This document shows, piece after piece, positions 6,210 through 25,761 of a stretch of DNA of 64,000 bases. Each line of letters opens with the position of its first letter. The stretch's first letter is position 1. Both the position numbers and the translations under genes were made by a program. The notes beneath the pieces are model-generated. The model did not search any database, was not told where the DNA came from, and was given only the letters and a program-made list of their open reading frames with translations. Origin of the DNA: Escherichia phage EC150; sequence record ON210137.1, one strand, 5' to 3'.

Positions 6210-6575
6210 TTGATACGCCTAAAATACGGCTAAAAATTAAGCGTATCATGGCTGCAGGCCGCGTCGTTCCTGGATTCTTCTTTTTAAAATTGGTACACCC
6301 TTACGTCATGATACGTCATGGTTTTTTATCCGTATCAGTGTACAGCCCTTGCCGCGCCTGGCTTGTACATTAATCTTACGGATGATACGGATAAAACTGG
6401 GCATCGTTATATATAAAACTCCAAAAATAAATAAACTCCATTTTAAAAACATTTATATTAATTTTTTTCATATCCTCATACTTATGTTAATTTATATATT
6501 TAACGTATCATCCGTAAGATATAAGTAAAAACAAAGACTTGCGGCAATACGGATGATACGTCATGATACGCTTCA
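6210..6575. repeat. repeat-flanked AT-rich element, copy A
   Basis: Multiple copies in both orientations of CGTATCATCCGTA / TACGGATGATACG (9-mer unit TCATCCGTA) flanking a ~100-bp AT-rich core (6400-6500); homologous to 22190-22460. Confidence 0.6.
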
Positions 6576-6774: not shown

Positions 6775-7981
6775 AATTTGCACTATGGGATTTGCACTAT
6801 GAGTCAAGATTATGTAGCAATGCCTGAAGACTTTGAAGACCCGCGATTTGCAGAGCATAATCAGGCATTATTCGATGAGTTCATTGACCTTGTTATTCAG
6901 GGCCATGACATGCGCGCAGCTTTTGCACTAGTATTTGGCATGGAGGTTGCGACCGATAACTACACTGGCCAGCGAGTCCTCTGCACGCAACGCAATCCGT
7001 ACTACAAGATGCGCTACAAAAAGCGTATGGAAGAGATGCCATTGAAGGAATTGTGGAGCGTAAAGAGTTCCATCCACAATTTAGTGAAGCTTGTGCGTGA
7101 TCCAGAAGTCGCGGCGTCAGCCAAGCTTAATGCCATTCGTGAACTGAATATCATCTACGGCATCACGATGATTGATGAGAATGGCAATAGTAAAATGGGC
7201 CGTTCCATGGACGATTTCTACAAGGATTTTGGAGAGGCAGCCAAAGAGGGTGAGCAATTCTCCCGCCACTAGCCAATTTGCACTATAAAACGGCCCTAGA
7301 ACACATTTTCTCCACTTCTAGGGCCATCGGTAATACGACGGGGAAGGTTACAACCATAAACGCGTTAGAAAGTGTATTATTATAAGTCATCTTTTAGTCA
7401 CTTTACGTAACAATTTACGACCTTCCGCCGTCCAGTCGAACGACTCCACCAGCAGATTTGCACTATAACCTAAGACGATGCGCCCTTTCTCGTTATCGAC
7501 CCGCCAACAAGTCTCGAATAGCATTCGATTTGCACTATTAACTATCGCCGCAACGCGCGCTGGGTAAGCGCAATTTGCACTATGGTCGTAAAGGGATAAG
7601 GTGCGACCACTTCCGATGGACAACGTAGCGATGAGAATAAGCGTATTCATAAGCCACCAATTTGCACTATGAAAAGCGACCCCGAAGGGCCGCCATTCGA
7701 TTAGATGATCTGGAATGTGTATGACTTGTTGCCGAACTCGAAGTTCAAGCGCCCAGCTTCCTTAAGCTTCATGCGGAAGCGAATGTGCTTGCTATCCGGT
7801 AATCCCAGCGCGATGAAAGCTACGCGGACCGATTTGAACTCGCCTACACCCTCGACCATAACGCCGTTACGGGTGAGACGCTTTTGCGCCACTTCCTTAT
7901 TATCCCAACTTTTTGCAATGCCTTCGCTATTCGAACGGCGATGGGAAGAAGTTCCATTTTGCACTACGCAATTTGCACTAT
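6775..7981 (+). repeat. array of 9 same-orientation copies of an AATTTGCACTAT-like 11-12-mer
   Basis: Copies at 6775, 6790, 7275, 7456, 7528, 7572, 7659, 7956 and 7970; irregular spacing; two copies overlap the start of the 6799 gene. Confidence 0.6.
6799..7272 (+). CDS. hypothetical protein (157 aa), possible regulatory or DNA-binding protein
   Basis: ATG embedded in a motif copy and downstream of the near-consensus promoter; function is inference only. Confidence 0.5.
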   Translation: MSQDYVAMPEDFEDPRFAEHNQALFDEFIDLVIQGHDMRAAFALVFGMEVATDNYTGQRVLCTQRNPYYKMRYKKRMEEMPLKELWSVKSSIHNLVKLVRDPEVAASAKLNAIRELNIIYGITMIDENGNSKMGRSMDDFYKDFGEAAKEGEQFSRH

Positions 7982-8327
7982 CGTTTAGGCCGCTCTTAAC
8001 GAAGGCTTCATACTCTTCGTCGGTCATCGCGTCGAGTTCTTCCTGAGTCGGCTCAGACTTTTTAACGACCGCACGCGCCTTATGCGTTTTTACATCGCTG
8101 GGCACTTCCTCGCGCGGCTTCGCGTCGGGAATGGGCGATTCGTTGGACGGCTCATCGAGCGCGTTCAAGGACTCGATTAACGCGATTACGCGAGTCTCGG
8201 CGGTCCGGCGGTCCGCGAACTTTTTAATCGGCTTCGAACCGGAATTTGCGTTGTAAAATGCAACGAGGTCGGCGGTCTTAGTTGCGATAACGTCGCCGCT
8301 AGTCGAGAAGCGATTTAAGCTAACCAT
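7701..8327 (-). CDS. hypothetical protein (208 aa)
   Basis: AGGAG 6-7 nt upstream of start at 8327; 5' half CpG-rich like the adjacent island; 3' part overlaps two motif copies so extent is uncertain. Confidence 0.5.
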   Translation of the reverse strand: MVSLNRFSTSGDVIATKTADLVAFYNANSGSKPIKKFADRRTAETRVIALIESLNALDEPSNESPIPDAKPREEVPSDVKTHKARAVVKKSEPTQEELDAMTDEEYEAFVKSGLNDSANCVVQNGTSSHRRSNSEGIAKSWDNKEVAQKRLTRNGVMVEGVGEFKSVRVAFIALGLPDSKHIRFRMKLKEAGRLNFEFGNKSYTFQII

Positions 8328-8407
8328 AATAAACTCCTATTTGTTAGGGCGCTAAGCGCGAAAGAATTTTATTAAAGCGCCGCGCACGACGCTCTTAAAA
8401 TCCTCTC

Positions 8408-8692
8408 TTACGCTTCGACGAGGGAGAAGGTTTCAAATTCTTCTTCGCCCATAACGAGTAAAATATTCCCGATTTCGACCGCTTCGAAGAAGTATCCGTT
8501 AACGTTTACTTCGAAGGCTTCGCGGTCCGATTCCGGTAACGCCGCGTAAAGTTTAAAAGCCTCGGCGACCGTTACCCCACCCGCTTCGATAGTTTGGTCT
8601 ACGTTCGCGGCGTAGACTTCGGATAAATTTTGTTTTACGCCGTAGTTCTCGACGATAGCGTTACGGATAGAAGAAACGTTAAGAATAGCCAT
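8408..8692 (-). CDS. small acidic protein (94 aa), paralog of 9326-9616
   Basis: N-terminus and V.(V/I)NG(Y/F)...(V/I)EIG block align with the 9326-9616 product; conserved leader CTCCCAACTAGGAG upstream. Confidence 0.55.
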   Translation of the reverse strand: MAILNVSSIRNAIVENYGVKQNLSEVYAANVDQTIEAGGVTVAEAFKLYAALPESDREAFEVNVNGYFFEAVEIGNILLVMGEEEFETFSLVEA

Positions 8693-8832
8693 TTTAAACT
8701 CCTAGTTGGGAGAGGCGTTAACGACCTATTCGTTAACTCATCCCGTCCCGATATGAGTACATTATAATATAGTGTAGAAAAAAGTAAAGCACTTTTTCGA
8801 TAAAAATGCGATAAATTATTTTATCTTTTTCC

Positions 8833-8860
8833 TTTACTTCTTCGTACACTCGCGTATACT
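8833..8860 (+). promoter_or_regulatory. sigma70-like promoter, duplicated element copy 1
   Basis: TTTACT, 16-bp spacer, TATACT; whole ~45-bp unit (CTTTACTTCTTCGTACACT ... TTTATATCGAGA) repeated at 9229-9272. Confidence 0.4.
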
Positions 8861-8915
8861 TGTTTATATCGAGACGGGCGATGGCCTTCCTTCTACTAGC
8901 ATCGGGAGTTTTATT

Positions 8916-9218
8916 ATGACTACTTTAATCTCTTCTATCCTTACTTACGACGAAGACCGTTTAACCGTTCGTTCTCTTATCGCCGCCGTTAACGCGGAAC
9001 TAGAATCCACCATCATTAAGGTCCGCGCGGTCGCTTTCGTCGGCCTTTCCTTCGACGATATTAAGTATGCCGAACGTAGCGCCATCCGCTTCGCGAAGAC
9101 CGACGACGAAGCCGTTACCCTTATCGAGACGGTTACGCCGCGCGGCGAAGCGTTAATTATCGTCGAGTATATCGACGTAGAGGGCGATAAGGCTTATAAA
9201 TATTTTATCGCAAAATAA
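8916..9218 (+). CDS. small acidic protein (100 aa)
   Basis: ORF with its own copy of the duplicated promoter; CpG-rich codon usage unlike the rest of the window. Confidence 0.5.
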   Translation: MTTLISSILTYDEDRLTVRSLIAAVNAELESTIIKVRAVAFVGLSFDDIKYAERSAIRFAKTDDEAVTLIETVTPRGEALIIVEYIDVEGDKAYKYFIAK

Positions 9219-9229
9219 CGAAAAAGTGC

Positions 9230-9258
9230 TTTACTTCTTCGTACACTAAGACTATAAT
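9230..9258 (+). promoter_or_regulatory. sigma70-like promoter, duplicated element copy 2
   Basis: TTTACT, 17-bp spacer, TATAAT; same unit as 8832-8874. Confidence 0.4.
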
Positions 9259-9325
9259 GTTTTATATCGAGAGGGGAGAGGAAGCGAATAGGTCGCCTTC
9301 CCGCCCTCCCAACTAGGAGAATATT

Positions 9326-9616
9326 ATGATTACTTTATCCGCTATCCGTTCCGCTCGCGTCGAGACTTCCGAAAACTCTAACGTATTTGGCGAAACCTTA
9401 GAGAGCGTTTATCTCTCTAACGTCGACGCGACTATCGAATCTATTTATGAGCCGATCAACTTCCTCGACCTTTACAAGTATCGCGACGAGGACATCGTAT
9501 CATCCCGCGTAACTATCAACGGCTTCGTCTATACGATTACCGAAATCGGCGGCGAATATATCGCGGTCCCGCAACTCGGCGGCGAAGTAACTTATTTTAA
9601 AATCGTCTCCTTATAA
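9326..9616 (+). CDS. small acidic protein (96 aa), paralog of 8408-8692
   Basis: Aligns with the 8408-8692 product; AGGAG RBS inside conserved leader CTCCCAACTAGGAG. Confidence 0.55.
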   Translation: MITLSAIRSARVETSENSNVFGETLESVYLSNVDATIESIYEPINFLDLYKYRDEDIVSSRVTINGFVYTITEIGGEYIAVPQLGGEVTYFKIVSL

Positions 9617-9781
9617 TACCCTTCCGTTACTAATAGGCCGCGCTTAGTCGCGGCTTTTCTTCGTCCCTATCCCGATGCGCGTCTACGCGAAAACTCCTTT
9701 ATCCTTCCCTTCGTCGTCGCATAATCTTCTTCGAGATGCTCCTTAGTTCGCATAACAGGTATTACGTTAAATGGAGAACAT

Positions 9782-9854
9782 CGCGTAAGTCCTTGTTTTA
9801 TATAGACACCTATATCGGACCGTTAGGGCGGGTCGCGTAAGTCGTTGTTTTATA
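9782..9854. repeat. 21-bp direct repeat, 2 copies
   Basis: CGCGTAAGTCCTTGTTTTATA at 9782 and CGCGTAAGTCGTTGTTTTATA at 9834. Confidence 0.4.
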
Positions 9855-9979
9855 AAGGCGCAAAACTTTCCCTTCGTTCCGAACTAAAACGAGAAATGTG
9901 CCGACCCTTCGCCCGAAAATAGTACGTATGCGAAATTACATGCATCTCGAATAATCCCTCCCGATATTATCCTACACGC

Positions 9980-10042
9980 AATCATTCGCTTTCGAATCAT
10001 TATGCTTCATATTGTTATGCGTCGAATCATTCGCTTTCGAAT
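9980..10042. repeat. 18-bp direct repeat, 2 copies
   Basis: AATCATTCGCTTTCGAAT at 9980 and 10025. Confidence 0.4.
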
Positions 10043-10131
10043 TGTAACGCTGGAAACTGTAACGGCGATTGATTATTGCGTTCGTGTGGTTTTTATGGCA
10101 TGGGTCTTTTGGTGCGTTTTGGTACTTGATG

Positions 10132-10244
10132 AAATTTGCAGTACACTAATCAAAATACGACACATTTGGTCCACTAACTTTTCAAAGAAAAAGTCCTAGA
10201 CAGTACCGTACTATTTTGTACCCACAGGAAATTTGCAGTACACT
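10132..10244 (+). repeat. 16-bp direct repeat, 2 copies, related to the AATTTGCA motif family
   Basis: AAATTTGCAGTACACT at 10132 and 10229. Confidence 0.4.
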
Positions 10245-10314
10245 CCTGCGCGGCAGGCAAAACAAAGGGCCGCACTAAGCGACCCACGATTCACGGTTAA
10301 ATCAGCAACACCCA

Positions 10315-10695
10315 CTATTCGCTCTTATGGGCATCACCAAAGCCATCCGCAATCTGGCTGATCAATGATTCAATGGACACAGTTTTACCAATTGATCGAG
10401 CGGTAATAGCAAGCATATTATCAATCAAACCATGATTGGATGCGTATGGTTCAGGTTTTGAATCATCTTCAGGACAACCAAAAAGCTGGTCGCGCAAACT
10501 TTCGAGAGAACGCTCAACATTTTCCAACTTCTCTTCTAAATCGGATTGGCGACGTAAAACCCATGTCAAGTCACGGTTGCCAACTTCCAATCCATCAGAA
10601 TAGCAAGGTGGAGCGTCAATTTTGTTGCTGGAACCAAAAGCAGTGCCGCTGCCTTTAGTATAAGTATGGCTCATAGAATCATTTTTATTTGACAT
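10315..10695 (-). CDS. hypothetical protein (126 aa)
   Basis: Minus-strand ORF in accessory block; no recognisable domain. Confidence 0.45.
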   Translation of the reverse strand: MSNKNDSMSHTYTKGSGTAFGSSNKIDAPPCYSDGLEVGNRDLTWVLRRQSDLEEKLENVERSLESLRDQLFGCPEDDSKPEPYASNHGLIDNMLAITARSIGKTVSIESLISQIADGFGDAHKSE

Positions 10696-10769
10696 ATCAT
10701 TACCTTTAATATTTGGTGATTAACAATAACTATAATAAAGCCGCATAGCGCGGCATTCAAATCGATTTA

Positions 10770-11018
10770 TTAATTGTGACGATTGGATTCATCAATCGAT
10801 ACCAATTGTGCAGGGTTGCCGGATACCGTTGCGCCGATGATTCCCATTTGAGAGAAAAATTCTGAATAAACCTCTTTCCAGTACTTGCGCGCTGCTTTCT
10901 GGGCTTGACCTTTGCGCTTATAACTTTTGCCTTGAAAGATGAAGCGGTCTTTTGGAGCGTAATACTCCACCACACCTTCCAGCCATTGTAAGAATGCTAC
11001 TGATTCATTTTTATTCAT
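10770..11018 (-). CDS. hypothetical basic protein (82 aa)
   Basis: Minus-strand ORF in accessory block. Confidence 0.4.
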   Translation of the reverse strand: MNKNESVAFLQWLEGVVEYYAPKDRFIFQGKSYKRKGQAQKAARKYWKEVYSEFFSQMGIIGATVSGNPAQLVSIDESNRHN

Positions 11019-11837: not shown

Positions 11838-14153
11838 TTATTTTGCTGATTTCAGCACGGCTATCTCTGCCTTGAGTTCATCAATCTGATCCATCAATGC
11901 GAGAATAGCCTCGTGGTGCAATGCCGCTGCAACGCCGTAAGTGTCAACTGACTTGATATCTTCGACAACAGTCCCATCCTTGAGTTCCGTGTTTGAATAT
12001 TTCAAAGTTTTTACTGCGTCAGGAAATACACCTTCTACATCTTGAGCTATAAATCCGATGCCATTCGGTTTCTCTGACTTATCAAGGCGCTCCCAAGTCA
12101 CACCCTTGATCAATCTCATCTTTCCTAACGGGTCGGAAATCCTTTGAATATTTGTTTTGACCCTCTCATCAGACGTGCTGACCCAGTTCCCTGCAGTAGC
12201 AGTACCATCAGGCATAAATTTGAAATCTGCTGCAGCGCCTTGCCCATTGTTTATGGATATTTGCGCGTGCATCAAATCAGTTCCAGTACCTCGAACGCCT
12301 CCGAATGTATAGCTGCCAGCATACCAATCCCCTGAAAAATATGATACATACCCAGGCGTTGACTGGTTGAAGTTTATCATCCTCATACCGTTGCTTTCAT
12401 ACGCTGAAACGCCTACTGAATTCAACGGTTGCACAACAAGGTCTTTTGGTCTGAGATATGCATTAACATTCAGCGCCCCGTCTGTCCTTTCCGTACTAAT
12501 TTGATTTATGGAGTTAGGGAAATAAAATGTGCCATCTTGCGCAAACTTCCATTCTTGCACCCCATTAGATATCACAGCACCTTGTTCAGACGTTAATCCA
12601 TCAATCTTACCGTATGCTTGCAAGAATGCTTGATACGCAATGTTGGTGCCAATTTTATATTCAGATTTTACACTGCCGCCACTGACAAGCGTTCCGGTTG
12701 CAGGTTTTACTGCGTCACCATTAATAACGCTCCAAGTCGTATTCGCAGCAGCAAATCCACCCGATGCACGAATCACCCAAACGCCTACAAAGTTACGACC
12801 CATTATTTCACTGTTTGAACGGCCATAAACCGGACTTACTCGCGAAGCATCAAAACTCACCCTAATAACACCATTACCAGTTACCGGTTCTGGTGACAAT
12901 GGTGTTTCTACCTGACCCGGTACAATAGCACCCGTCTGCCCGTAGGCGACGACGCCACCAATATCCCCGTAAATGTTTGGTGCAGCTGAATCAAACACAA
13001 CACCATCAGCGTTGGAGTTTGCGGTGCCATTTCCTGCGCCGTCACCTCGTCCATAAAGAGCGGCTAATGAACCGACTTGAACGCCGTTTTTGTCGGGCAC
13101 ACGGAAAGTCGTTGAGCCATTACCAAGAGAATACTTTCCGCGCTTTGTTGGGTCCGCAAGCCAATCCGCATCAGCAATAGGAGTCAGCATTTGAGCATAT
13201 GCCCAAAGCTCAGGCCAGTCTGCGCGGTTAAGCAATTGCCCGTCTGCAACAACTTCATATGGCTGGATGTAAGCACGGCTATCACGAAGATGAAAATCAC
13301 CAACACCATAGTTCATTACACCGTTCATGTTCGGTCCAACGGTGCCAGTGTTGATAAGGTTTTCAACCCAACGTTTAGTCGCAGCATCATAATCATTCAC
13401 AGGGTCACCAGCAAGCGGAGTTGGGCCTGTCGGTCGAATATTCAACCAAGCCTGCGCATTATCCCCTGATCCTGTGCCGCCCATGGAAGTGGGCACGATA
13501 TTTTGATCAGCGACTTGTCCGAATCCAAAAGCAGACTTCATGCCCTGAATAGTACTCTGCCCTGTGCCACCGTTTGCCACTGGTACTACATCAAGTTCGC
13601 TATAAACCTTTTTCCAAGGTGACCAAAAGTCGCCATTAAATACCCTGTTGTATTCAGGGCCAACCGTTGCTGTGTATTTTTGTGAACAAGCATTTGCTGA
13701 AATTTGGATTACTTCCAATACTCCAGACGATAAGGTTGGGTAGTTCAAAGCAGGTGATGCTGATAGACTGTTCGGCTGGTAATATTGGCCAAACCATGAA
13801 CCAGTCAAAGCATTGAGATTTATTCCGTTAGGAATCTCTCCAAAGTTTCGGACAGTACCCGTCAAAGTCGCAGCAGTAGTTCGAATGGAAAGCATGTCGC
13901 CAGCCGCCCATGCACGCGCTGCAGTTCCTTCCTGTGCACGCTGCACGGTCAGGACGTTTCCAACAACGGCTGTTACTGTGACGATTTCGAATTGGAGGCC
14001 TGTCGCAGCGTCTACGATTGTCGCCACTACACGCTCGTTTGCAGCCAAGGTCGGAAATCCCGACCCTGAGCGAATTGTGATTGTGGTGTCTGAAGTCGTC
14101 GTTGGCTGAGCGAGCGCGACCTCAAAGTTGTTTTTGAATATTAGCCTTGGCAT
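11838..14153 (-). CDS. tail fibre/tailspike with C-terminal intramolecular chaperone (peptidase S74-like) domain
   Basis: 771 aa; DAATKRWVE collar-like motif; Gly/Ser/Thr-rich body; C-terminal SDERVKTNI...ISDPLGK...GVTW...GFIAQDVEGVFPDAV typical of auto-cleaving chaperone domains. Confidence 0.85.
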   Translation of the reverse strand: MPRLIFKNNFEVALAQPTTTSDTTITIRSGSGFPTLAANERVVATIVDAATGLQFEIVTVTAVVGNVLTVQRAQEGTAARAWAAGDMLSIRTTAATLTGTVRNFGEIPNGINLNALTGSWFGQYYQPNSLSASPALNYPTLSSGVLEVIQISANACSQKYTATVGPEYNRVFNGDFWSPWKKVYSELDVVPVANGGTGQSTIQGMKSAFGFGQVADQNIVPTSMGGTGSGDNAQAWLNIRPTGPTPLAGDPVNDYDAATKRWVENLINTGTVGPNMNGVMNYGVGDFHLRDSRAYIQPYEVVADGQLLNRADWPELWAYAQMLTPIADADWLADPTKRGKYSLGNGSTTFRVPDKNGVQVGSLAALYGRGDGAGNGTANSNADGVVFDSAAPNIYGDIGGVVAYGQTGAIVPGQVETPLSPEPVTGNGVIRVSFDASRVSPVYGRSNSEIMGRNFVGVWVIRASGGFAAANTTWSVINGDAVKPATGTLVSGGSVKSEYKIGTNIAYQAFLQAYGKIDGLTSEQGAVISNGVQEWKFAQDGTFYFPNSINQISTERTDGALNVNAYLRPKDLVVQPLNSVGVSAYESNGMRMINFNQSTPGYVSYFSGDWYAGSYTFGGVRGTGTDLMHAQISINNGQGAAADFKFMPDGTATAGNWVSTSDERVKTNIQRISDPLGKMRLIKGVTWERLDKSEKPNGIGFIAQDVEGVFPDAVKTLKYSNTELKDGTVVEDIKSVDTYGVAAALHHEAILALMDQIDELKAEIAVLKSAK

Positions 14154-15566: not shown

Positions 15567-17027
15567 ATGAATAAAATATTAACACATAATTGGAAAGTCA
15601 TGTACCAGTTGAATCCTGCTTTAAGAGAAGTCTGGAAGACGAAAGCGCGATACAAAGTCATATACGGCGGTCGTGCATCTTCCAAATCGCACGATGCCGC
15701 TGGTTTTGCTATTTATTTGGCGGCAAACTTCAAATTAAAATTCCTTTGCGTTCGACAATTCCAGAACAAGATTTCTGAATCAGTATATACGCTATTAAAA
15801 GACAAAATAGAAATTTCTGATTTCAAAGACGAGTTCAACTTATTAAAGAACTCTATTGAACACAAAAGAACAAAATCTGAATTCTTATTTTACGGTATCG
15901 CACGCAACGTTGATGAAATCAAATCAACAGAAGGCGTTGATGTTCTTTGGCTTGAAGAAGCGCATGCGCTGACTGAAGAGCAGTGGGACATCATTGAGCC
16001 GACAATTCGTAAGGAAGGGTCCGAAATATGGATCATATTTAACCCTGATGAAGAGGCTGATTTTGTCTACCAGAACTTTGTCATGCGACCGCCGAAGAAT
16101 GCCATCGTTAAGAAGATTAACTGGCAAGACAACCCATTCTTGTCGCAAACAATGCTGGATGTTATCGCTGGCATGTATGAGCGCGACCCGAAAAAGGCAG
16201 AACACGTTTATGGCGGAGTACCGAAGACTGGCGGCGACAAGTCGGTAATCAACCGTGCATTCGTCAAGGCCGCGCTAAACCTCCACAAACACCCTACGCT
16301 GGGATGGAGCTTGTCAGGGTCTAACCGTATAGGCTTTGACGTGGCGGACGACGGCGACGACTTAAACGCCACAGCATTTGTCACTGGCAACGTATTGCGC
16401 GGCATCAAGACATGGGAAGGTCTGGAGGATGAATTGCTTAAGTCCGCAAGCGGAGTCTGGAAAGACGCATTGACATTCGGCGCATCAATCACCTATGACG
16501 CCATCGGTGTTGGTGCATTTGCTGGTTCAAAATTTGATGAGCTTAATGAGTGTGCAATCCATGAAAATCCAACATTCCCAAGAATCGAATTTAATGCGTT
16601 CAACGCGCAAGGTGCTGTTGATGATCCTGATGACGTTTTCCTTGAGTTACCACACGTTGAAATACTCAATAAAGACCATTTCGCAAACATAAAAGCGCAA
16701 AAATGGACTGAGATTGCCGAACGATTCAGAAAGACATATGAGTATGCGACAGGGCAAGCCGTATATCCGACCGATGAGTTGATTTCCATCGACACAGACG
16801 GCATCCCAGAACTTGGTATTCCCGCTTGGTCTGCGGAAGAGATTGAGACGTTTCTTTTTGAGATGTCAGCGCCGCGCAAAGATACGTCTGTTCTTGGTAA
16901 GTTCAAAGTTGAATCGAAAAAAGATATGGCAAAGCGTGGAGTCAAATCGCCTAACAAAGCGGACGCAGCAATCATGGCATTGATGAAACCAATTGTTGCA
17001 GCATCCGGCTTCTTCTCTAACCTTTAA
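15567..17027 (+). CDS. terL: terminase large subunit
   Basis: 486 aa; Walker A-like GGRASSKS; LWLEEAH Walker B-like; C-terminal nuclease-like region with acidic residues. Confidence 0.9.
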   Translation: MNKILTHNWKVMYQLNPALREVWKTKARYKVIYGGRASSKSHDAAGFAIYLAANFKLKFLCVRQFQNKISESVYTLLKDKIEISDFKDEFNLLKNSIEHKRTKSEFLFYGIARNVDEIKSTEGVDVLWLEEAHALTEEQWDIIEPTIRKEGSEIWIIFNPDEEADFVYQNFVMRPPKNAIVKKINWQDNPFLSQTMLDVIAGMYERDPKKAEHVYGGVPKTGGDKSVINRAFVKAALNLHKHPTLGWSLSGSNRIGFDVADDGDDLNATAFVTGNVLRGIKTWEGLEDELLKSASGVWKDALTFGASITYDAIGVGAFAGSKFDELNECAIHENPTFPRIEFNAFNAQGAVDDPDDVFLELPHVEILNKDHFANIKAQKWTEIAERFRKTYEYATGQAVYPTDELISIDTDGIPELGIPAWSAEEIETFLFEMSAPRKDTSVLGKFKVESKKDMAKRGVKSPNKADAAIMALMKPIVAASGFFSNL

Positions 17028-17807: not shown

Positions 17808-17845
17808 ATAGATTGATTCCCTTTCACTGTCAGGTGGCGTTAACA

Positions 17846-20221
17846 ATGAAAATTCTTGGCATAAAACTCTGGGAGAAGACGCAACCAGAAGCCGAACCAG
17901 CGGAGATGCCGCCAGGCGACCCATTGGCACCGTTTGAACGCCTTGAAAGGCGCGGCAGCGGTCAACGCTGGGAAAAGACTGAAAGCAATCGACCGACCTT
18001 TAAAACGGTTGATGACTTCCCTTTATATGAGCCTGATATTAATGGCGATGGTGTTGCAATCATAAAAGGTCGTTCAGTCGATTCCGCAACAGTATCCAAA
18101 AAGGTTATGGATAATGCCTTAAAGAACATCAGTTCAGAAGGGCAAGTCAACCCATACACAGTACCTATTCAACTTCAAAACTGGTATTTGTCACAGTCAT
18201 TCATCGGCTATCAAGCTTGTGCCATCATCGCACAGCATTGGCTGGTGAACAAGGCATGTTCCATGGTAGGCCGCGATGCGGTCCGTAAAGGTTGGGAAGT
18301 CAAATCCAGTTCTGAGTCAGAATTGTCAGTACAGGCAAGCGAACGCCTAAAGCAAATTGATAAAGAATTTAATATCAAAGAGCACTTAGTTGAAGCCGAA
18401 CGATTCAAAAATATTTTTGGTATCCGCGTCATCATATTTGATGTGCGTAGTGATGACCCAGAATATTACAGCAAGCCTTTTAACATTGATGGTGTGACAA
18501 AGGGGTCTTATAAGGGAATCATTCAGGTTGACCCTTATTGGATGATGCCGTTTCTGACGTCTGAAAACACAGCAGACCCTGCATCACAGCACTTCTATGA
18601 CCCAGAATATTGGGTAATCAGCGGACAACGTTATCATCGCAGCCACCTCATAATCTTGCGCAACGATGAGCCAGCTGATATTCTCAAGCCGACTTATATT
18701 TACGGCGGCATTCCTCTGACTCAGCAGATTTATGAACGCATCTATGCCGCTGAACGTACCGCCAACGAAGCGCCATTGCTGGCGATGTCCAAGCGTACAA
18801 CGACGCTGCGGACCGACGTTGACAAGGCTATTGCCAATGAGCGGTCTTTTGCAGAACGTCTGATGATGTGGATCAAGTACCGCGACAACTATGCAGTCAA
18901 AGTGCTTGGCCAAAAAGAAGAGATGGACCAGTTTGACATCAACTTGTCAGACTTCGACAGCATCATCATGAACCAGTACCAGCTTGTGGCCGCAATCGCA
19001 AAAGTTCCGTCGACCAAACTGCTTGGGACTTCGCCAAAAGGCTTTAACGCCACTGGTGAATTCGAGATGGTCAGCTATCACGAAGAGTTGGAAACGTGCC
19101 AGCAGCATGACCTGACAAAAATTCTCGACCGCCATTACAAAATCCTTCTCAAATCAGAAGGGGTGGATGTCGATGTTAAGGTTGCATGGGAACCAGTTGG
19201 CTCACTTACTGCTACTCAACTTGCAGAAATCAATGATAAGCGAGCCAACACTGGCAAAACTCTTATTGATGCTGGCGTCATTTCTCCTGATGAAGAGCGC
19301 GACCGCATCAAAGACGACAAAAACAGCGGCTACAACCGTCTGCCGGAAGACGCAGCAGAAGAAACCCCAGGGATGTCTCCAGAGAATATGGCATTGCTTG
19401 GCAAGTCTGCTGGTGAAGTCCTGCAAGGTAAGGCCGATATTGAACAGGCGAAAGCTGATGTCGTTAAGATGGGCGGCCAGTTCTATAGCGAAACAGGTAT
19501 TATGCCAGAGGGTGCCGCGCGCGGTGAGTTGGCGGAAAACCCTGACAAAGCGCCTGTCGAAATCAACATGGACGATACCGATGATGAATCGAGCCATCAC
19601 ATTGATGTCCTAACGCAGTTGAAAGAAGGGCTGGAGGGTATTGCGGATTACTACCTGAAAGAAGGTCAGGATGTGGATTTTGACCCTCAAAAAGATTCAC
19701 GGTCGGTGCAACCGTCTACCCTTCCAAGCGTTAAAGGACACGTAGTCAACTTACGCCACAACGTGGGTAAAATGGACGCAGCATCATTACCTAAGATGAA
19801 GTTGCACGGAATGATTCTTGGCATTGAGAATCCGCGAAACAGCATTCGTAGAGGAAACAGCATTGACGGTGAATGGGCCGTGAAGATGCCGCACCACTAC
19901 GGATTCATCAAGGGCACCAAGGGCGCAGACGGTGATGAAGTCGACTGCTTTGTGGGTCCAAATCTGAAGTCGCCGAAAGTCTTTATTGTGAACCAAAACG
20001 ATAACTACTCTGGCGAGTTTGATGAACACAAGTGTATGCTTGGATTCGATTCAGCAGAAGAAGCGAAAGAAGCTTATCAAGCATCATTTGGTAACGGTTG
20101 GAACGGCTTCGACTCAATCCACGAATTAGATGTGAACTCATTCAAGGAGTGGTTGAAGGGTGATTGCTCTCAAGCATACGGAGCACTCAATAATCCTACT
20201 AATTCACCGAAGCAAGGTTGA
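17846..20221 (+). CDS. portal protein with C-terminal inorganic-pyrophosphatase-like extension
   Basis: 791 aa from ATG after AGGTGG; position after terminase; C-terminal ~150 aa contains HYGFIKGTKGADGDEVDCFV, matching the family I pyrophosphatase signature as recalled. Confidence 0.8.
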   Translation: MKILGIKLWEKTQPEAEPAEMPPGDPLAPFERLERRGSGQRWEKTESNRPTFKTVDDFPLYEPDINGDGVAIIKGRSVDSATVSKKVMDNALKNISSEGQVNPYTVPIQLQNWYLSQSFIGYQACAIIAQHWLVNKACSMVGRDAVRKGWEVKSSSESELSVQASERLKQIDKEFNIKEHLVEAERFKNIFGIRVIIFDVRSDDPEYYSKPFNIDGVTKGSYKGIIQVDPYWMMPFLTSENTADPASQHFYDPEYWVISGQRYHRSHLIILRNDEPADILKPTYIYGGIPLTQQIYERIYAAERTANEAPLLAMSKRTTTLRTDVDKAIANERSFAERLMMWIKYRDNYAVKVLGQKEEMDQFDINLSDFDSIIMNQYQLVAAIAKVPSTKLLGTSPKGFNATGEFEMVSYHEELETCQQHDLTKILDRHYKILLKSEGVDVDVKVAWEPVGSLTATQLAEINDKRANTGKTLIDAGVISPDEERDRIKDDKNSGYNRLPEDAAEETPGMSPENMALLGKSAGEVLQGKADIEQAKADVVKMGGQFYSETGIMPEGAARGELAENPDKAPVEINMDDTDDESSHHIDVLTQLKEGLEGIADYYLKEGQDVDFDPQKDSRSVQPSTLPSVKGHVVNLRHNVGKMDAASLPKMKLHGMILGIENPRNSIRRGNSIDGEWAVKMPHHYGFIKGTKGADGDEVDCFVGPNLKSPKVFIVNQNDNYSGEFDEHKCMLGFDSAEEAKEAYQASFGNGWNGFDSIHELDVNSFKEWLKGDCSQAYGALNNPTNSPKQG

Positions 20222-20222
20222 T

Positions 20223-21074
20223 ATGGCTTTTAAAGCTTCGAAAAAACGTGAACGCCGCTCACCCGATAGAGTCGGGCGCGGCAGTCCGATAATCCCATCC
20301 AACGCTATTGCGATGGCCTATCGTCGTGAGATGAAAGGTCTTTGCTATGCGATGATTGACGACTATCAAGCAGGAATTGCTGAGTGGCTTGAAAAGAAGC
20401 AGGTTAAAAAGTTCTTTGCGCAAGACTCTGCTGATTCAACTTTTCAGACCTTGATGAAGCGACTGCAACTGAAATGGGCAAAAGCTTTCGCCCGTGTCGG
20501 GTCAAAGATTGCCGCAGATTTCATCAAGTCAGTTGAAAAGGGCGCCACTTCTGCTACATTTGCAAGTCTTAAATCTGCAGGAATAGAAGCGCCAAAAGCC
20601 ACATATAATAAATTCGTTGAGAACACTCTTAAAACAAGCGAGACGTTCAACACGACTTTAGTGACTAAGGTTGGCGAAGATATTCACAACAGGGTGTACG
20701 AAGCGGTGATGCTTTCGCTGACTTCGCCAGACCCAGCACAACAAGGCACGTCAGGCATTCAGGCGGCATTGCGAAACGTAAAACACTTCTCTGCAAAGAG
20801 AGTCGACTTGATCGCTAAAGACCAGACAAGCAAGTTGTATTGCGTTCTAAGCGATGAAAGGATGCGCCAGAATGGAGTCGAAGAATTTGAGTGGGCGCAC
20901 TCAGGAGCAGGAAAGGAGCCGCGAATCTCTCATGAACACGTCGACGGAATGAGATTCAAACTTGATGACAAGCGCCTATGGGAAGTTGGCGGCGAATTGA
21001 AGTTCAAAAAGGGTGACATCGGTCCTCCTGGATGGGCAATACACTGCAAGTGCAGAAAAATACCAATCATTTGA
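20223..21074 (+). CDS. head morphogenesis protein (MuF/SPP1 gp7-like)
   Basis: Start adjusted to internal ATG right after portal stop; position and length typical of minor head protein. Confidence 0.7.
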   Translation: MAFKASKKRERRSPDRVGRGSPIIPSNAIAMAYRREMKGLCYAMIDDYQAGIAEWLEKKQVKKFFAQDSADSTFQTLMKRLQLKWAKAFARVGSKIAADFIKSVEKGATSATFASLKSAGIEAPKATYNKFVENTLKTSETFNTTLVTKVGEDIHNRVYEAVMLSLTSPDPAQQGTSGIQAALRNVKHFSAKRVDLIAKDQTSKLYCVLSDERMRQNGVEEFEWAHSGAGKEPRISHEHVDGMRFKLDDKRLWEVGGELKFKKGDIGPPGWAIHCKCRKIPII

Positions 21075-21081
21075 GGTCATT

Positions 21082-22002
21082 ATGACGATACCAATCAGCA
21101 CGTTTCCTCTATCTGGACAAACGCCAGTATTGCCTGCTGTATATGCTAACGGTTTGGCGATTGTTTCAGAATTTACATCCGATAAAAACCTGATTGTTCC
21201 ATTGAGTCCGCCATTGGCATCTGGATACAATTCAGTTGGTCAATTCTTTATGATCGGTAATGATGGCGATTCTACCAGCAAGCCGAATCTGACACTTTCA
21301 GTTCCCAAAATGAACATAACAGACGTGCAGACTGGTTTAACTGCATCTACAATCACCATCGCTTTTGGAGAAGCAGTGATTATAGGCATGGAGTCTGGAG
21401 GGTCCAAGAATGCTGTCGCCGTTAAGGTAGTCAAATCCAGCGGCAACCAATACACGTTACCAGCGGCAACGGCTTCTGTTCTCGGCGGCGTCAAGATAGG
21501 AAGTGGCATAAGTGTTGCAGGTGACGGTACAATTAGTGTTACTCAATACTCGTTACCGATTGCATCAGCATCAACCTTGGGTGGCGTAAAAGTAGGAACG
21601 ACACTATCAATTGATGGTTCTGGAGTTCTTAATGCTGCTGCAAGCAATGTGCAAAACACAAGCAATAGTGTAAGCAATCCTCCGACAACTCTGGTGAATC
21701 TGGCAACATTAAACCTGCCTGCAGGGAAATGGCTTGTGACAGCAAGTCAGTTGACTGTCGCAACAGAAGGAGTTCAAGCGAATACCGGAATTACAGTAAA
21801 ATTGTCAACAAGTAATTCAGATATTACGGATGATGCATTCACGATGTCTGCTGGCATTCGGGCTGCAGGTCGTTTCGGCGGCAATATTCCAACAAAGATA
21901 ATTACTCTTGCCGCGCCTGGCAACGTGTATCTAAACTATCAATGCACAGACGCATTGACATCTACCGTTTACGGACAGATCACCGCAATTAAGTTGAACT
22001 AA
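21082..22002 (+). CDS. structural protein with fibre-like repeats (possible head fibre or decoration)
   Basis: Repeated ...A(T/S)AS(V/T)LGGVK(I/V)G... units; Gly/Ser/Thr-rich; GAGG RBS. Confidence 0.55.
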   Translation: MTIPISTFPLSGQTPVLPAVYANGLAIVSEFTSDKNLIVPLSPPLASGYNSVGQFFMIGNDGDSTSKPNLTLSVPKMNITDVQTGLTASTITIAFGEAVIIGMESGGSKNAVAVKVVKSSGNQYTLPAATASVLGGVKIGSGISVAGDGTISVTQYSLPIASASTLGGVKVGTTLSIDGSGVLNAAASNVQNTSNSVSNPPTTLVNLATLNLPAGKWLVTASQLTVATEGVQANTGITVKLSTSNSDITDDAFTMSAGIRAAGRFGGNIPTKIITLAAPGNVYLNYQCTDALTSTVYGQITAIKLN

Positions 22003-22012
22003 AGAGGAAGTT

Positions 22013-22150
22013 ATGCAAAAGATTATGCAGTCACGTTACGTTAAAGTGCGAAATATTAATTGCAACTCTTTGCTTTCTTGGAAATGGGCTGTTTACGACT
22101 CGATGCTGATTGGCGTTTTAGTTGCTGGAGTGCTTTTTAATATTCACTGA
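22013..22150 (+). CDS. small hydrophobic peptide (45 aa)
   Basis: ATG 5 nt after AAGAGGAAG; product has hydrophobic C-terminal half; below the size cut-off of the ORF track. Confidence 0.3.
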   Translation: MQKIMQSRYVKVRNINCNSLLSWKWAVYDSMLIGVLVAGVLFNIH

Positions 22151-22189
22151 ATCGCCTGGCAATGGATTGCCGCAGGATTTCACGCGTAT

Positions 22190-22460
22190 AATGACGTATC
22201 ATCCGTATCAAGTAAGTAGTTGTTTTCAAAAGAATCTTACGGATGATACGGATGATACGCGTTGCCGCGATACTTTATAGGAATTCAAATAAATTAATTT
22301 AAAATTATATATCTAATTTAATTTTATTTTTTTATAAACTCTTATATATGAAAAGTATCCGTATCATCCGTATCATCCGTAGCACACCAGTGATAGCGCG
22401 GCTTATACACCGATACGGATAAAAATACGCCTCATTTTATCCGTATCATCCGTATCACAC
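22190..22460. repeat. repeat-flanked AT-rich element, copy B
   Basis: Tandem and inverted copies of TCATCCGTA / CGTATCATCCGTA around an AT-rich core (22280-22350); homologous to 6210-6575. Confidence 0.6.
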
Positions 22461-22574
22461 TAATTAAGGCGCGCGGCTATATCGGTTGTTATACATATTC
22501 AAACCATAATTATTGTTTGCCTAAGTTTTTTTCATTAGATATAATACACAATACTTATTTGAGGGTGGATGCGA

Positions 22575-23987
22575 ATGCAAACGGCACGCGAAATTGACAA
22601 AAATGGATTCTTGACGATTGTGGGTTGTCCCATTTCGTCATTTGGCATTTTTGATTATTCTGCAGGTCAGGTTGGACTTGATGGTGATCCGAATCGCATC
22701 GTAAAAGTTTATCGCCCAGAGTCAGCGGTGAAAGACCCCGAAGCGATAGATTCATTCAAAAATATCCCTTTCATCGACAATCACGAAATGCTTTCTGGAT
22801 TCGAAGGTGATGAGGATAACACAGCACCCGAAGAGTATGGCGTTGATGGCGTTCTAACTGGCAATGTTTATTATGACAAGCCATGGATGCGCGGCGACCT
22901 TAAAGTTTTTAGCCGTCGTCTGAAGAAAGCCATCGATTCTGGAAAGGTTGACTTGTCTTTGGGCTATGACTGTGAATTCATCATACAGTCTGGAGAGTTT
23001 GACGGGCAGCCGTATGAAGTGGTACAGACAACTCTTCGCGGCAACCACATTGCTCTCGTGGACGTTGGTCGAGTACCAGGTGCACGGGTGCTGGATGGTC
23101 GTTGCTTTGACCATCTTTGTTTGACGACTGTAACACCATCCAACGAGGATTTAGACATGCCAAAACCGTTAAAAGGTAAAGCGCGTGATAATGCTGTTGA
23201 ACAGCTGAAGTCGCTGATCCCTGCGCTCGAACAATTTCTGAATGAAGAGAGCACCGAAGCTGCTCATCAGGACGAAGTTGAAGTGAAAGCAGAAGAGAAG
23301 GATTCAACCGAAGAACGTGAAGAAGTGATGGTTGATCCAGAAGTCAAAGCAGAAGCTGAAGAGACTCCAGAAGGTGAAGAGAAGTTTGAAGTTGAAACTG
23401 AATCTCACGCTGGCGGCGAGCTTCCGCAACTGATCAGCCAAATCGAAGCACTTATTGCAAAACTGAAAGGTGGCGCGGTAGGTGATGAAGAAGAAGTTGA
23501 AGCCGAAGTCAAAGACGAAGAAGTTGAAGTCAAGGCTGAAGATGTATCACCTTGCGACAAAGCTGAAGATGTGGTTAGCGGCCTGCAAAACAGCAACGTA
23601 AAGGGGGCTTCGGTCGAAAAAGATGACAAACCGACAAAAGCGGCGAAAGCGTCGCCAGGTCCAGCAAAAGGGGAACACTCAATGGCATCTGATTCAGCAG
23701 TTGCTGCTTTCTACGCTGATTCTGCTCGTAAGAATAGCCTCTACCAGCGCCTGTCTAAAGTTGTTGGTGCCTTTGATCATGCAACTATGGACTCCAAGTC
23801 CGTAGCGAAATATGGCGCTAAAAAGTTAGGCTTGAAGTGCGTTGATGGTGCTGAGTTTGACGTGGTGGATAATTATCTGCGCGGCGTTGAACACGGTCAA
23901 AAACAGCGTGTAGTCGCAAAACAAAAGGCTGCTGCGGATTCTGCAGCAACTGACGAAGCGTTTGAAGCTTGGTTGAAAGGGGAATAA
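22575..23987 (+). CDS. scaffolding protein (possibly with prohead-protease-like N-terminal domain)
   Basis: Position between head morphogenesis and capsid genes; highly acidic Glu/Val/Lys-rich central region; start adjusted to ATG 6 nt after GAGGGTGG. Confidence 0.55.
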   Translation: MQTAREIDKNGFLTIVGCPISSFGIFDYSAGQVGLDGDPNRIVKVYRPESAVKDPEAIDSFKNIPFIDNHEMLSGFEGDEDNTAPEEYGVDGVLTGNVYYDKPWMRGDLKVFSRRLKKAIDSGKVDLSLGYDCEFIIQSGEFDGQPYEVVQTTLRGNHIALVDVGRVPGARVLDGRCFDHLCLTTVTPSNEDLDMPKPLKGKARDNAVEQLKSLIPALEQFLNEESTEAAHQDEVEVKAEEKDSTEEREEVMVDPEVKAEAEETPEGEEKFEVETESHAGGELPQLISQIEALIAKLKGGAVGDEEEVEAEVKDEEVEVKAEDVSPCDKAEDVVSGLQNSNVKGASVEKDDKPTKAAKASPGPAKGEHSMASDSAVAAFYADSARKNSLYQRLSKVVGAFDHATMDSKSVAKYGAKKLGLKCVDGAEFDVVDNYLRGVEHGQKQRVVAKQKAAADSAATDEAFEAWLKGE

Positions 23988-24621: not shown

Positions 24622-25761
24622 ATGACTCGCATTAGCCAAACACACTCTCGCCTCCCAGCGAGCAAGGTGCGCCCTTTTGATATGCAATCCGTGACCGACG
24701 CGGCTGTTTCCCAGCTTGCGCGTATCGGTATTGTGTTTGATTCCGCGATTGTGCGTGATCAGATTGAGCACTTAAACCGTGCAGGCGCTTTCCGCGTAGG
24801 TGACGCCGCATTTACTGCGCCGCAGACCACGCCATCAATCCCGACCCCGCTGCAGTTCCTGCAACAGTGGCTGCCTGGCTTCGTCAAAATCATGACCGCT
24901 GCCCGTAAAATTGACGAGCTGGTTGGTATTGATACTGTTGGTCAGTGGGAAGATGCAGAAATCGTTCAGGGCATCGTTGAACCAGCTGGCACCGCAGTTG
25001 AATATGGTGATTTCACCTCTATTCCTCTGGCAAGCTGGAACGTGAACTTTGAACGCCGTTCCATCGTTCGCGGTGAAATGGGCATGGCAGTCGGCATGCT
25101 GGAAGAAGGCCGCGCGTCTGCGATGCGTCTGAACTCTGCAGAGACCAAGCGCCAGCAGGCTGCTGTATCTCTGGAAATCATGCGTAACGCAATCGGCTTC
25201 TATGGTTGGTATAACGGGAACAACCGCACGTTCGGCTTCCTGAATGATCCAAACCTGCCAGCGGCAATGACTTCAAACACCACTTCCGGCTGGGCTACTG
25301 CGACCTTCCAACAGGTGACTGCAGACATCCGTTTGATGGTTCGTCAAATCCGTGTCAACTCTCAGGACCAGATTGATCCAGAGAAGGTTGATATGACTCT
25401 GGCGCTGCCGACCAACTCTATTGATTGGCTGTCAAACACCACCGACTTCGGTATTTCTGTACGTGACTGGATCACCCAGACTTATCCGAAGATGAAGATC
25501 AAATCTGCACCGGAACTCAACGGCGCACTTGGCAGTGACCCGACTTTCCTGAACGTGGCATATCTGTACGCTGATCACATCGATTCCTCAATTGATGGCT
25601 CAAGCGATGATGGTTCCGTATTCAGTCAACTGGTCCAGACTAAGTTTATGACTCTGGGCGTTGAGAAACGCGCTAAGAGCTACGTTGAAGACTACGCAAA
25701 CGCAACAGCAGGCGTTCTGCTCAAGCGTCCTTTCGCAGTCGTCCGTATGACTGGTATCTAA
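24622..25761 (+). CDS. major capsid protein
   Basis: 379 aa; position after scaffold; followed by a stem-loop (25787-25816). Confidence 0.7.

Follow-up and report, generated by a model that had tools for sequence, protein, structure and literature searches.

The fibre gene and its product

The DNA analysed here, called the window throughout, is a stretch of 64,000 nucleotides (nt) from Escherichia phage EC150 (sequence record ON210137.1), and our subject is one of its genes, at positions 21082..22002 on the plus strand, the product of which is an accessory fibre of the virion. According to the list of open reading frames (ORFs) and direct reading, the gene has an ATG start and 306 codons plus a stop and encodes a protein of 306 amino acids (aa) and 30.8 kDa, in which Thr (11.8%), Ser (11.1%) and Gly (10.5%) together make up 33.4% of the residues. 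It directly follows a gene for a Mu-F-like head morphogenesis protein (MuF; PF04233, phrog_324) that ends at 21074. The ribosome-binding site GAGG (21073..21076, plus strand; read directly from the sequence) lies 5 nt ahead of the ATG and overlaps the TGA stop codon (21072-21074) of this upstream gene, and the fibre gene is therefore probably co-transcribed and co-translated with the genes for the portal and MuF. The portal gene (17813-20221, plus strand) encodes a portal (PF06381) fused to an InPase domain (PF18823), and the gene for the large terminase subunit (PF04466) is found at 15567-17027. Next after the fibre gene come a 45-aa ORF with a hydrophobic C-terminus (22013-22150, plus strand) and a non-coding gap of 418 nt (22151-22568), followed by the genes for a scaffold/protease of the DUF2213/Pa193_gp24 type (22569-23987), a cement protein of the E217-gp24 type (PF22758) and the major capsid protein (24622-25761; PF09950). 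The initial annotation of the fibre gene had correctly given its coordinates, its size of 306 aa, its richness in Gly, Ser and Thr and its position in the head module, as judged from the ORF list, direct reading and the Pfam and PHROG matches of the neighbours. It had also placed the gene between the head morphogenesis and scaffold genes, which holds on the upstream side, where the gene directly follows MuF, but not on the other, where the small ORF and the gap keep it from abutting the scaffold gene.

Two Escherichia phages, ECML-117 (AFO10469.1, PI34_gp36) and FEC19, have a 'hypothetical protein' with 100% identity to the fibre, which recurs at 95-99.7% identity in 24 further Wifcevirus records; its orthologue in vB_Eco4M-7 is vB_Eco4M-7_38. 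By its sequence, the window is that of a Wifcevirus, an E. coli myophage of the ECML-117/FEC19 type; this genus comprises myoviruses of E. coli and Shigella with genomes of 66-72 kb.

Mass spectrometry (MS) has been published for digests of CsCl-purified vB_Eco4M-7 and ECML-117 phage (Necel et al. 2020, PMC7048862), and the locus tags of two of the detected proteins match the fibre gene: vB_Eco4M-7_38 (30.9 kDa) was identified by 8 peptides with 72.9% coverage, a score of 3354, 775 peptide-spectrum matches (PSMs) and an area of 3.6e10, and ECML-117 PI34_gp36 (30.8 kDa) by 3 peptides (PMC7048862). Virion proteomics, which the initial annotation had proposed as a check, thus places the protein in CsCl-purified virions of two Wifceviruses. 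Among the nine proteins for which we read values, the area of the fibre was second to that of the cement protein (1.06e11), with lower areas for a T-shaped tail fibre (1.1e10), the sheath (2.4e9), the portal (2.0e9) and the major capsid protein (4.4e8; PMC7048862 Table S2). We considered deriving copy numbers from areas or PSMs but discarded the idea: the capsid protein, present in 535 copies in E217, has an area below that of the 12-copy portal, and the two phages disagree. Given the low capsid area and the few non-structural proteins that were also detected in the same virion preparation (PMC7048862), we used the MS data for presence only. As a separate observation, the scaffold/protease (gp40) was among the strongest virion signals (1574 PSMs, area 3.2e10) while the capsid protein was among the weakest (PMC7048862 Supplementary Table S2); this would mean either that mature heads retain the scaffold, whole or as a fragment, or that digestion or ionisation of the capsid protein is poor.

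Modules of the fibre

The fibre has a three-module anatomy of anchor, two-repeat shaft and knob, which is new here. Specifically, the N-terminal domain (N-domain; 21082..21447, plus strand; aa 1-122) is all-beta and presumed to be the anchor that binds the particle, with the conserved motifs LPxxY(H)N, E(F/Y)YxIxNxGD..KPxLT and GE(T). It is followed by two shaft repeats, unit 1 (21448..21543, plus strand; aa 123-154, QYTLPAATASVLGGVKIGSGISVAGDGTISVT) and unit 2 (21544..21639, plus strand; aa 155-186, QYSLPIASASTLGGVKVGTTLSIDGSGVLNAA). The C-terminal domain (C-domain; 21640..21999, plus strand; aa 187-306) has nine beta strands and is predicted to form a TNF-like jelly-roll knob, presumably a glycan-binding tip.

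The protein had been described as built from repeated units of the kind found in fibre shafts, based on a motif that we find exactly twice, as ATASVLGGVKIG at aa 129 and as ASASTLGGVKVG at aa 161. The two adjoining 32-aa units have the consensus 'YxLPxAxxxLGGVKxG' and 16 of 32 residues in common, and their local alignment scores 91 compared to 20 +/- 4.7 in shuffles (z = 15). The repeats are thus real, but there are only two of them, accounting for 64 of the 306 residues or about one fifth of the protein; the other ~240 residues form two globular beta domains. Three full-length metagenomic relatives (51-57% identity) have kept the N- and C-terminal regions and possess two, three and four to five units, respectively; with two, three or more units in orthologues, the length of the shaft is variable. 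The motif itself is widespread, with 1048 protein matches that nearly all extend over only these ~60 residues and contain 2-8 units, and the matching proteins include annotated tail fibres of Ralstonia phage phiRSL1 and of Synechococcus phages. Together, a repeat motif that is widespread in phage fibres, a varying shaft length and the detection in virions support the earlier proposal that this is a structural protein of fibre type.

Searches with Pfam at E up to 10 found no family for the N-domain or the C-domain, and a profile of the N-domain compared with all PDB sequences returned noise only (best E 0.11, UvrB). The full-length AlphaFold2 model, a monomer built from six sequences, has a predicted local distance difference test score (pLDDT) of 77-94 for the N-domain (aa 1-117) and of 70-86 for the C-domain (aa 190-306), and the N-domain re-modelled from 17 homologues reached a pLDDT of 87.9 and a predicted template modelling score of 0.80. 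In a Foldseek search of the PDB, the full model matched trimeric TNF-like jelly-roll lectins with a probability of 1.0 and E of 4e-5 to 3e-4, among them the N-terminal domain of Burkholderia BC2L-C (E 4.4e-5; template modelling (TM) score 0.57-0.60 on the target), Photorhabdus PLTL, the carbohydrate-binding domain of the short tail fibre of cyanophage A-1(L), and ExsFA. The TM scores of 0.54-0.60 on BC2L-C-Nt and PLTL are those of a monomer model with a pLDDT of 70-86 from six sequences. Because the TNF-like matches vanish when the N-domain is searched alone, we assigned them by elimination to the C-domain and predict a TNF-like jelly-roll lectin knob there. The domains of BC2L-C, PLTL and A-1(L) are small jelly-roll domains that bind sugars as trimers, and sequence identity is 16-21% for BC2L-C and PLTL and 14% for the A-1(L) domain.

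The fold of the N-domain resembles anchor domains of tailspikes and tail fibres as well as part of the Pa223 capsid spike (the part of gp52 that was aligned is not reported). More precisely, it is akin to T4 gp9/gp10-like domains, to the N-terminal region of CBA120 TSP4 and to the N-terminus of Acinetobacter phage Solidus gp83. None of these tail anchors has sequence similarity to the N-domain (4-16% identity), and whereas their proteins reside in tails or baseplates and are encoded by tail-module genes, the N-domain family is encoded by genes in head operons.

The protein also matches the Pfam family PF11133 (Phage_head_fibr) above threshold (31.3 bits compared to a gathering cut-off of 24.6). 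However, the match is limited to aa 108-146, corresponding to profile positions 213-251, or 39 of 277 positions. When the three parts of the protein were scanned singly, PF11133 was matched by the repeats alone, at positions 228-252 in unit 1; the N-domain scanned alone gave no PF11133 match, and positions 1-212 of the profile remained without any alignment. Similarly, a phmmer search of PDB sequences with the whole protein recovered residues 200-254 of phi29 gp8.5 (E 7e-4) through the repeat motif only. Like the window protein, gp8.5 (PDB 3QC7, 6QVK) carries the 'YSLPAATTTTLGGVKKG' motif, in one copy at residues ~225-254, and with about 280-306 aa the two virion proteins are of similar size. 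Placement of the trimer at quasi-3-fold positions of the capsid is a further mark of the gp8.5 family. The phi29 fibre is trimeric and dispensable and is believed to help attachment (PMC6542822, PMC7602432); its capsid-binding base (residues 1-110) consists of two small beta-barrels (beta-tulip) that form a pseudo-hexagonal trimer on the capsid (PMC6542822), and residues 117-280 form the projecting fibre with a helix-turn-helix supercoil stem (PMC6542822; PMC7602432). The window protein has no counterpart of this N-terminal two-beta-barrel base and none of the helix-turn-helix stem, its AlphaFold model being free of helices of at least four residues; gp8.5 structures were not among the fold matches of the N-domain, and the phage types differ, the window representing a T=9 myovirus with cement and phi29 a prolate podovirus. 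The part of gp8.5 after residue ~200 is said to be the distal neck and head in the 2011 account of Xiang and Rossmann. We considered membership in the gp8.5 family and rejected it, because base and helical stem are absent and only a generic fibre motif is in common.

Because the PF11133 match covers the repeats only, it says nothing about attachment to the capsid. It does account for the contradictory names under which the protein is listed in GenBank, since a 'head fiber' match reports no more than a generic fibre motif: the records read 'head fiber protein' (WFH, CWP003), 'tail fiber protein' (Bas98-101), 'tail protein' (F13), 'tail connector protein' (AV128) and 'hypothetical'. The name 'head fiber protein' is thus already present in two GenBank records, where it rests on the Pfam match.

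The N-domain family and the post-MuF slot

When 1.84 billion representative proteins were searched with an N-domain profile, just 29 proteins matched. Besides P0001, P0004 and P0074, which belong to the fibre's own family, we retrieved and aligned 12 homologues with a single N-terminal stretch of similarity; in these 12, the domain lies at or near the N-terminus and is followed by unrelated distal sequences of 143-746 aa. Particle anchors with an exchangeable binding part are normally organised in this way, with a conserved N-terminal module to which different distal parts are joined, and the N-domain is presumed, on this pattern, to be the anchor of an accessory fibre. The window protein, as the founding member of the family, matches the profile with an hmmsearch E of 1e-37 and carries the motifs LPxxYxN, EFYxIxNxGD..KPxLT and GET; the alignment of the family contains no conserved stretch of 7-10 columns. 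By hmmsearch, no other ORF of the window, tail fibres included, has an N-domain. Among cultured phages (tblastn against 50,697 phage records), the N-domain was found in Wifcevirus and BcepF1 only, with two other N-domains as queries, and the C-domain in Wifcevirus only.

In their genomic contexts, which are those of E217/PB1-like phages, the genes of P0002, P0133, P0129, P0122 and P0137 each follow a MuF-like gene directly and precede the genes for scaffold/protease, cement and capsid. Post-MuF loci with an N-domain gene are those of the window, L006, L010/L011, L013, L014, L015/L016 and BcepF1. Of seven N-domain homologues with an informative context, BcepF1.122 included, six directly follow MuF in the head operon and the seventh, P0074, which consists of N-domain and repeats only, lies just upstream of terL; an eighth context, that of P0123 on a 1.8-kb contig, was too short and was left out of the count. 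The occupant of the same slot in Burkholderia phage BcepF1, gp122 (L008 5593-7344; 583 aa), is labelled 'hypothetical protein'. Its N-domain was recovered by a profile made without it (hmmsearch E 1e-20) and by BLASTP (E 6e-5), and beyond the N-domain it has a collagen triple-helix G-X-Y segment (aa ~414-468, PF01391) and then a further C-terminal domain.

The slot may also hold more than one gene. In L014, two consecutive post-MuF genes (7948-9840 and 9816-10871) both start with an N-domain (E 6e-44 and 1e-16), and in L010 (3716-9388) there are three fibre-like genes, encoding proteins of 1073 aa with a weak YadA_head match, 405 aa and 402 aa; these arrangements suggest that one virion type may carry several accessory fibres. 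By contrast, PB1 and Xanthomonas phage FoX6 have tiny ORFs only in the slot, and the fibre is therefore an accessory part of this virion type. Judged from these sequences, the N-domain defines a previously undescribed, small family of anchors that is tied to the post-MuF slot of PB1-like phages. P0122, P0124, P0128 and P0130 have hydrophobic, signal-peptide-like or lipoprotein-like extensions of 20-30 aa ahead of the N-domain; such extensions are odd for a virion fibre and may reflect miscalled start codons or a different biology.

Some further features of the locus stand apart from the fibre. The gap at 22151-22568 is strongly structured (RNA fold of -118 kcal/mol, z = -7.7) and is composed of the 9-mer TCCGTATCA in inverted tandem copies that surround a core of about 70 nt consisting almost purely of A+T. 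This 9-mer occurs 8 times in the window compared to 0.35 expected, six times in the gap and as an inverted pair at 6329-6391. By sequence pattern the gap looks like an iteron/operator array or an origin; it also includes a sigma70-like promoter at 22517-22545, and a search of it against Rfam gave nothing significant (best E 0.095, far below gathering scores). Gaps are found at the equivalent place in PB1, L006 and L015. ORFs of 46-51 aa occupy the place equivalent to 22013-22150 in PB1, BcepF1, L013 and L015, indicating that the 45-aa ORF is conserved independently of the fibre. Finally, the InPase domain forms the C-terminal part of the portal (aa ~660-782; PF18823, E 3e-46), and this portal-InPase fusion is also present in metagenomic relatives.

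Position on the virion and likely function

The initial annotation had suggested capsid-attached head fibres or decoration, which we consider plausible. Concerning the site at which the fibre is mounted, we favour the head, to which we give about an even chance. Several observations argue for it: of the seven N-domain homologues whose context could be judged, six come right after MuF in the head operon; the fibre is probably translationally coupled to MuF; its overall architecture parallels that of the Pa223 capsid spike; and the collagen-like variant of BcepF1 recalls SPP1 gp12. A further point is that the capsid of the related phage E217 has T=9 symmetry, with 180 trimeric cement proteins that protrude at every 3-fold and quasi-3-fold axis; cement trimers of this type would offer the fibre a symmetry-matched docking site. 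In comparison with relatives, cement is the least conserved head protein (54-56% identity compared to 76% for the capsid protein) and the N-domain is also fast-evolving (42%), which is a weak hint toward head attachment.

Other decorated heads provide partial parallels. The Pa223 spike gp52 (Pseudomonas phage; PDB 9NY6) is similar in size to the window fibre (295 aa) and forms trimeric spikes of about 100 A that end in a C-terminal TNF-fold knob; on the capsid, they have been proposed to help adsorption. However, sequence identity is about 10%, the middle part of gp52 is a triple beta-helix rather than LGGVK repeats, and gp52 is anchored by a 40-residue N-terminal arm at the icosahedral 3-folds of an undecorated T=7 podovirus capsid. 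SPP1 gp12 (a collagen-like trimer), T4 Hoc and Bas63 Hex-Dec are dispensable head-surface decorations of adhesin type that combine a conserved capsid-binding module with a variable projecting part, and the BcepF1 slot occupant shares a collagen-like segment with SPP1 gp12. The window fibre itself has no relation in sequence or fold to these three, Hoc and Hex-Dec being monomeric Ig strings.

Based on these considerations, we propose that the gene encodes a short accessory fibre of Wifcevirus virions that presumably assembles as a homotrimer. Its N-terminal beta domain of ~120 aa would provide the anchor on the particle. The shaft, very short and made of two 32-aa 'LGGVK' beta repeats that vary in number between orthologues, would lie between this anchor and the tip, and the C-terminal knob would be a TNF-like jelly-roll such as trimeric lectins and fibre tips use. 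The fibre would be co-expressed with the portal and the MuF-like head protein and mounted on the T=9 head, either atop the trimeric beta-tulip cement protein or at the centres of capsomers, from where it would project by about 10 nm. There, it could act as an auxiliary glycan adhesin of low specificity that keeps the phage near the cell surface while the tail fibres find the O-antigen receptor.

Several observations weigh against this placement. The best fold matches of the N-domain are anchor domains of tailspikes and tail fibres. The N-domain diverges far faster than the capsid protein (42% compared to 76% identity with L006), and the N-domain of the slot occupant in L015 is only about 18% identical. 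PB1, E217 and FoX6 make complete virions without this gene, and the PF11133 match excludes the capsid-binding base of gp8.5 and is hence uninformative on attachment. MS abundance is unreliable (capsid protein 4.4e8, below the portal at 2e9; only 3 peptides for the ECML-117 fibre). With respect to the structural model, the C-domain fold comes from a model with a pLDDT of 70-86 built from six sequences, and the repeat region has a pLDDT of only 31-45 in the monomer model, although such low values would be expected for a monomer of a presumably trimeric shaft. In addition, the position of a gene is a weak guide to virion location in Wifcevirus, which already encodes one tail fibre outside the baseplate module: this fibre (11838-14153, minus strand; 771 aa, with a C-terminal S74 intramolecular chaperone, PF13884, phrog_6921) is encoded upstream of the terminase gene, far from the baseplate genes, and corresponds to the 'T-shaped' fibre with dual receptor-binding domains described for the BASEL collection (PMC11990801). 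Likewise, the neck-whisker gene of Bas63 adjoins head genes.

A rival reading is that of a third, short fibre of the tail or baseplate. Its N-domain would dock to the baseplate or to a different tail fibre, in the manner of T4 gp9/gp10-type domains and the XD/anchor domains of tailspikes, with the position in the head module being incidental. T4 gp9, T4 gp10 and KP1 baseplate chains are indeed in the Foldseek list of the N-domain, tail families are among the PHROG matches, the repeat motif is common in the tail-fibre proteins of phiRSL1 and Synechococcus phages, and the T-shaped fibre sets a precedent for a tail-fibre gene away from the baseplate genes. The names 'tail fiber' and 'tail protein' in the records of Bas98-101 and F13 point the same way, but GenBank names are automatic and mutually contradictory. 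Against this reading, none of the seven informative N-domain contexts lies in a baseplate or tail-fibre module, six following MuF and one preceding terL; the baseplates of E217 and PB1 are complete without this protein; and the study of host recognition in Wifcevirus gives only two sets of tail fibres and leaves this protein undiscussed (PMC11990801). We therefore judge a tail or baseplate location to be rather unlikely.

A whisker of the neck or collar around the portal/adaptor region, comparable to T4 Wac or the whiskers of Bas63 and Sf14, would attach during or after head completion and would bind cell-surface glycans or stabilise the head-tail joint. This arrangement would be in keeping with the single operon that the gene shares with the portal and the portal-associated MuF-like protein, with the numbering of the fibre-like whisker gene gp5 of Bas63 close to decoration gp7 and capsid gp8, and with the 'tail connector protein' of one GenBank record. 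Nevertheless, no collar or Ig-like adaptor gene lies alongside, the neck of E217 is fully explained by proteins that are conserved here, which leaves no additional partner, and no fold of Wac, Bas63 gp5 or GP4 Fiber-1 appears among the top matches. Taken at face value, the high MS signal relative to the portal, a weak measure, would also exceed that of 12-36 copies, and we regard the neck as a still less probable site. Lastly, a non-exposed product, be it a protein inside the head, an ejection protein or an assembly factor that accompanies MuF, is very improbable, and a small remainder of the probability is assigned to none of these sites. The gene does adjoin, and is probably co-expressed with, those for the portal-InPase fusion and the MuF-like protein, whose counterparts in other phages are internal or portal-associated. 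However, external trimeric fibres typically combine an anchor domain with fibre repeats and a TNF-like knob, collagen-like and other long fibrous parts are present in homologues from this slot, and both the variation in repeat number and the bias of substitutions toward the C-domain fit an exposed protein.

As to function, the fibre is 95-100% identical across 28 Wifcevirus records, the recorded hosts of which include O157:H7, K-12-derived (BASEL) and Shigella flexneri strains, and substitutions are mostly in the C-domain (10 of 14 in the comparison with vB_Eco4M-7). In contrast, the receptor-binding domains of the T-shaped tail fibres vary widely, and the total dependence of Bas98-101 on the O16 O-antigen has been attributed to tail fibres (PMC11990801). 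Conservation across hosts while the receptor-binding domains of the tail fibres vary fits an auxiliary, broadly specific adhesin and not a determinant of host range. From the modelled C-domain we infer glycan binding, and by analogy an adhesin role would fit, comparable to those proposed for phi29 gp8.5, T4 Hoc, SPP1 gp12 and Pa223 gp52.

Extending head mounting to the family, we consider it possible, with somewhat less than even chances, that PB1/E217-like myoviruses have a cassette site behind MuF at which capsid-mounted adhesin fibres on a common anchor of ~120 aa are exchanged. The anchor, with its gp10-like fold, may dock on the T=9 head with its cement, the trimeric beta-tulip cement protein being a possible site, and the distal parts may be a TNF-like knob in Wifcevirus, a collagen-like part in BcepF1 and other long fibrous parts in metagenomic relatives, sometimes in tandem.

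Accessory virion fibres, head fibres included, are already known; what is new, besides the three-module anatomy and the anchor family with its exchangeable distal parts, is that the PF11133 match is uninformative on location and that the fibre gene is linked to published virion proteomics. Both Wifceviruses and the Pbunavirus phages related to them are candidates for use in phage therapy and biocontrol, and host recognition in Wifcevirus has so far been framed as the work of two sets of tail fibres. If an abundant, conserved, lectin-tipped fibre indeed sits elsewhere on the virion, it would be an overlooked adhesion factor with possible effects on adsorption kinetics, retention in mucus or on lipopolysaccharide, immunogenicity and purification, and it would lend itself naturally to display in engineering. 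If true, mounting by means of this anchor on a T=9 capsid with cement would be a new mode of attachment, and if the post-MuF slot is an exchange site for such fibres, the head would constitute a second evolvable surface for adhesion to hosts or mucus in a group of phages used in therapy.

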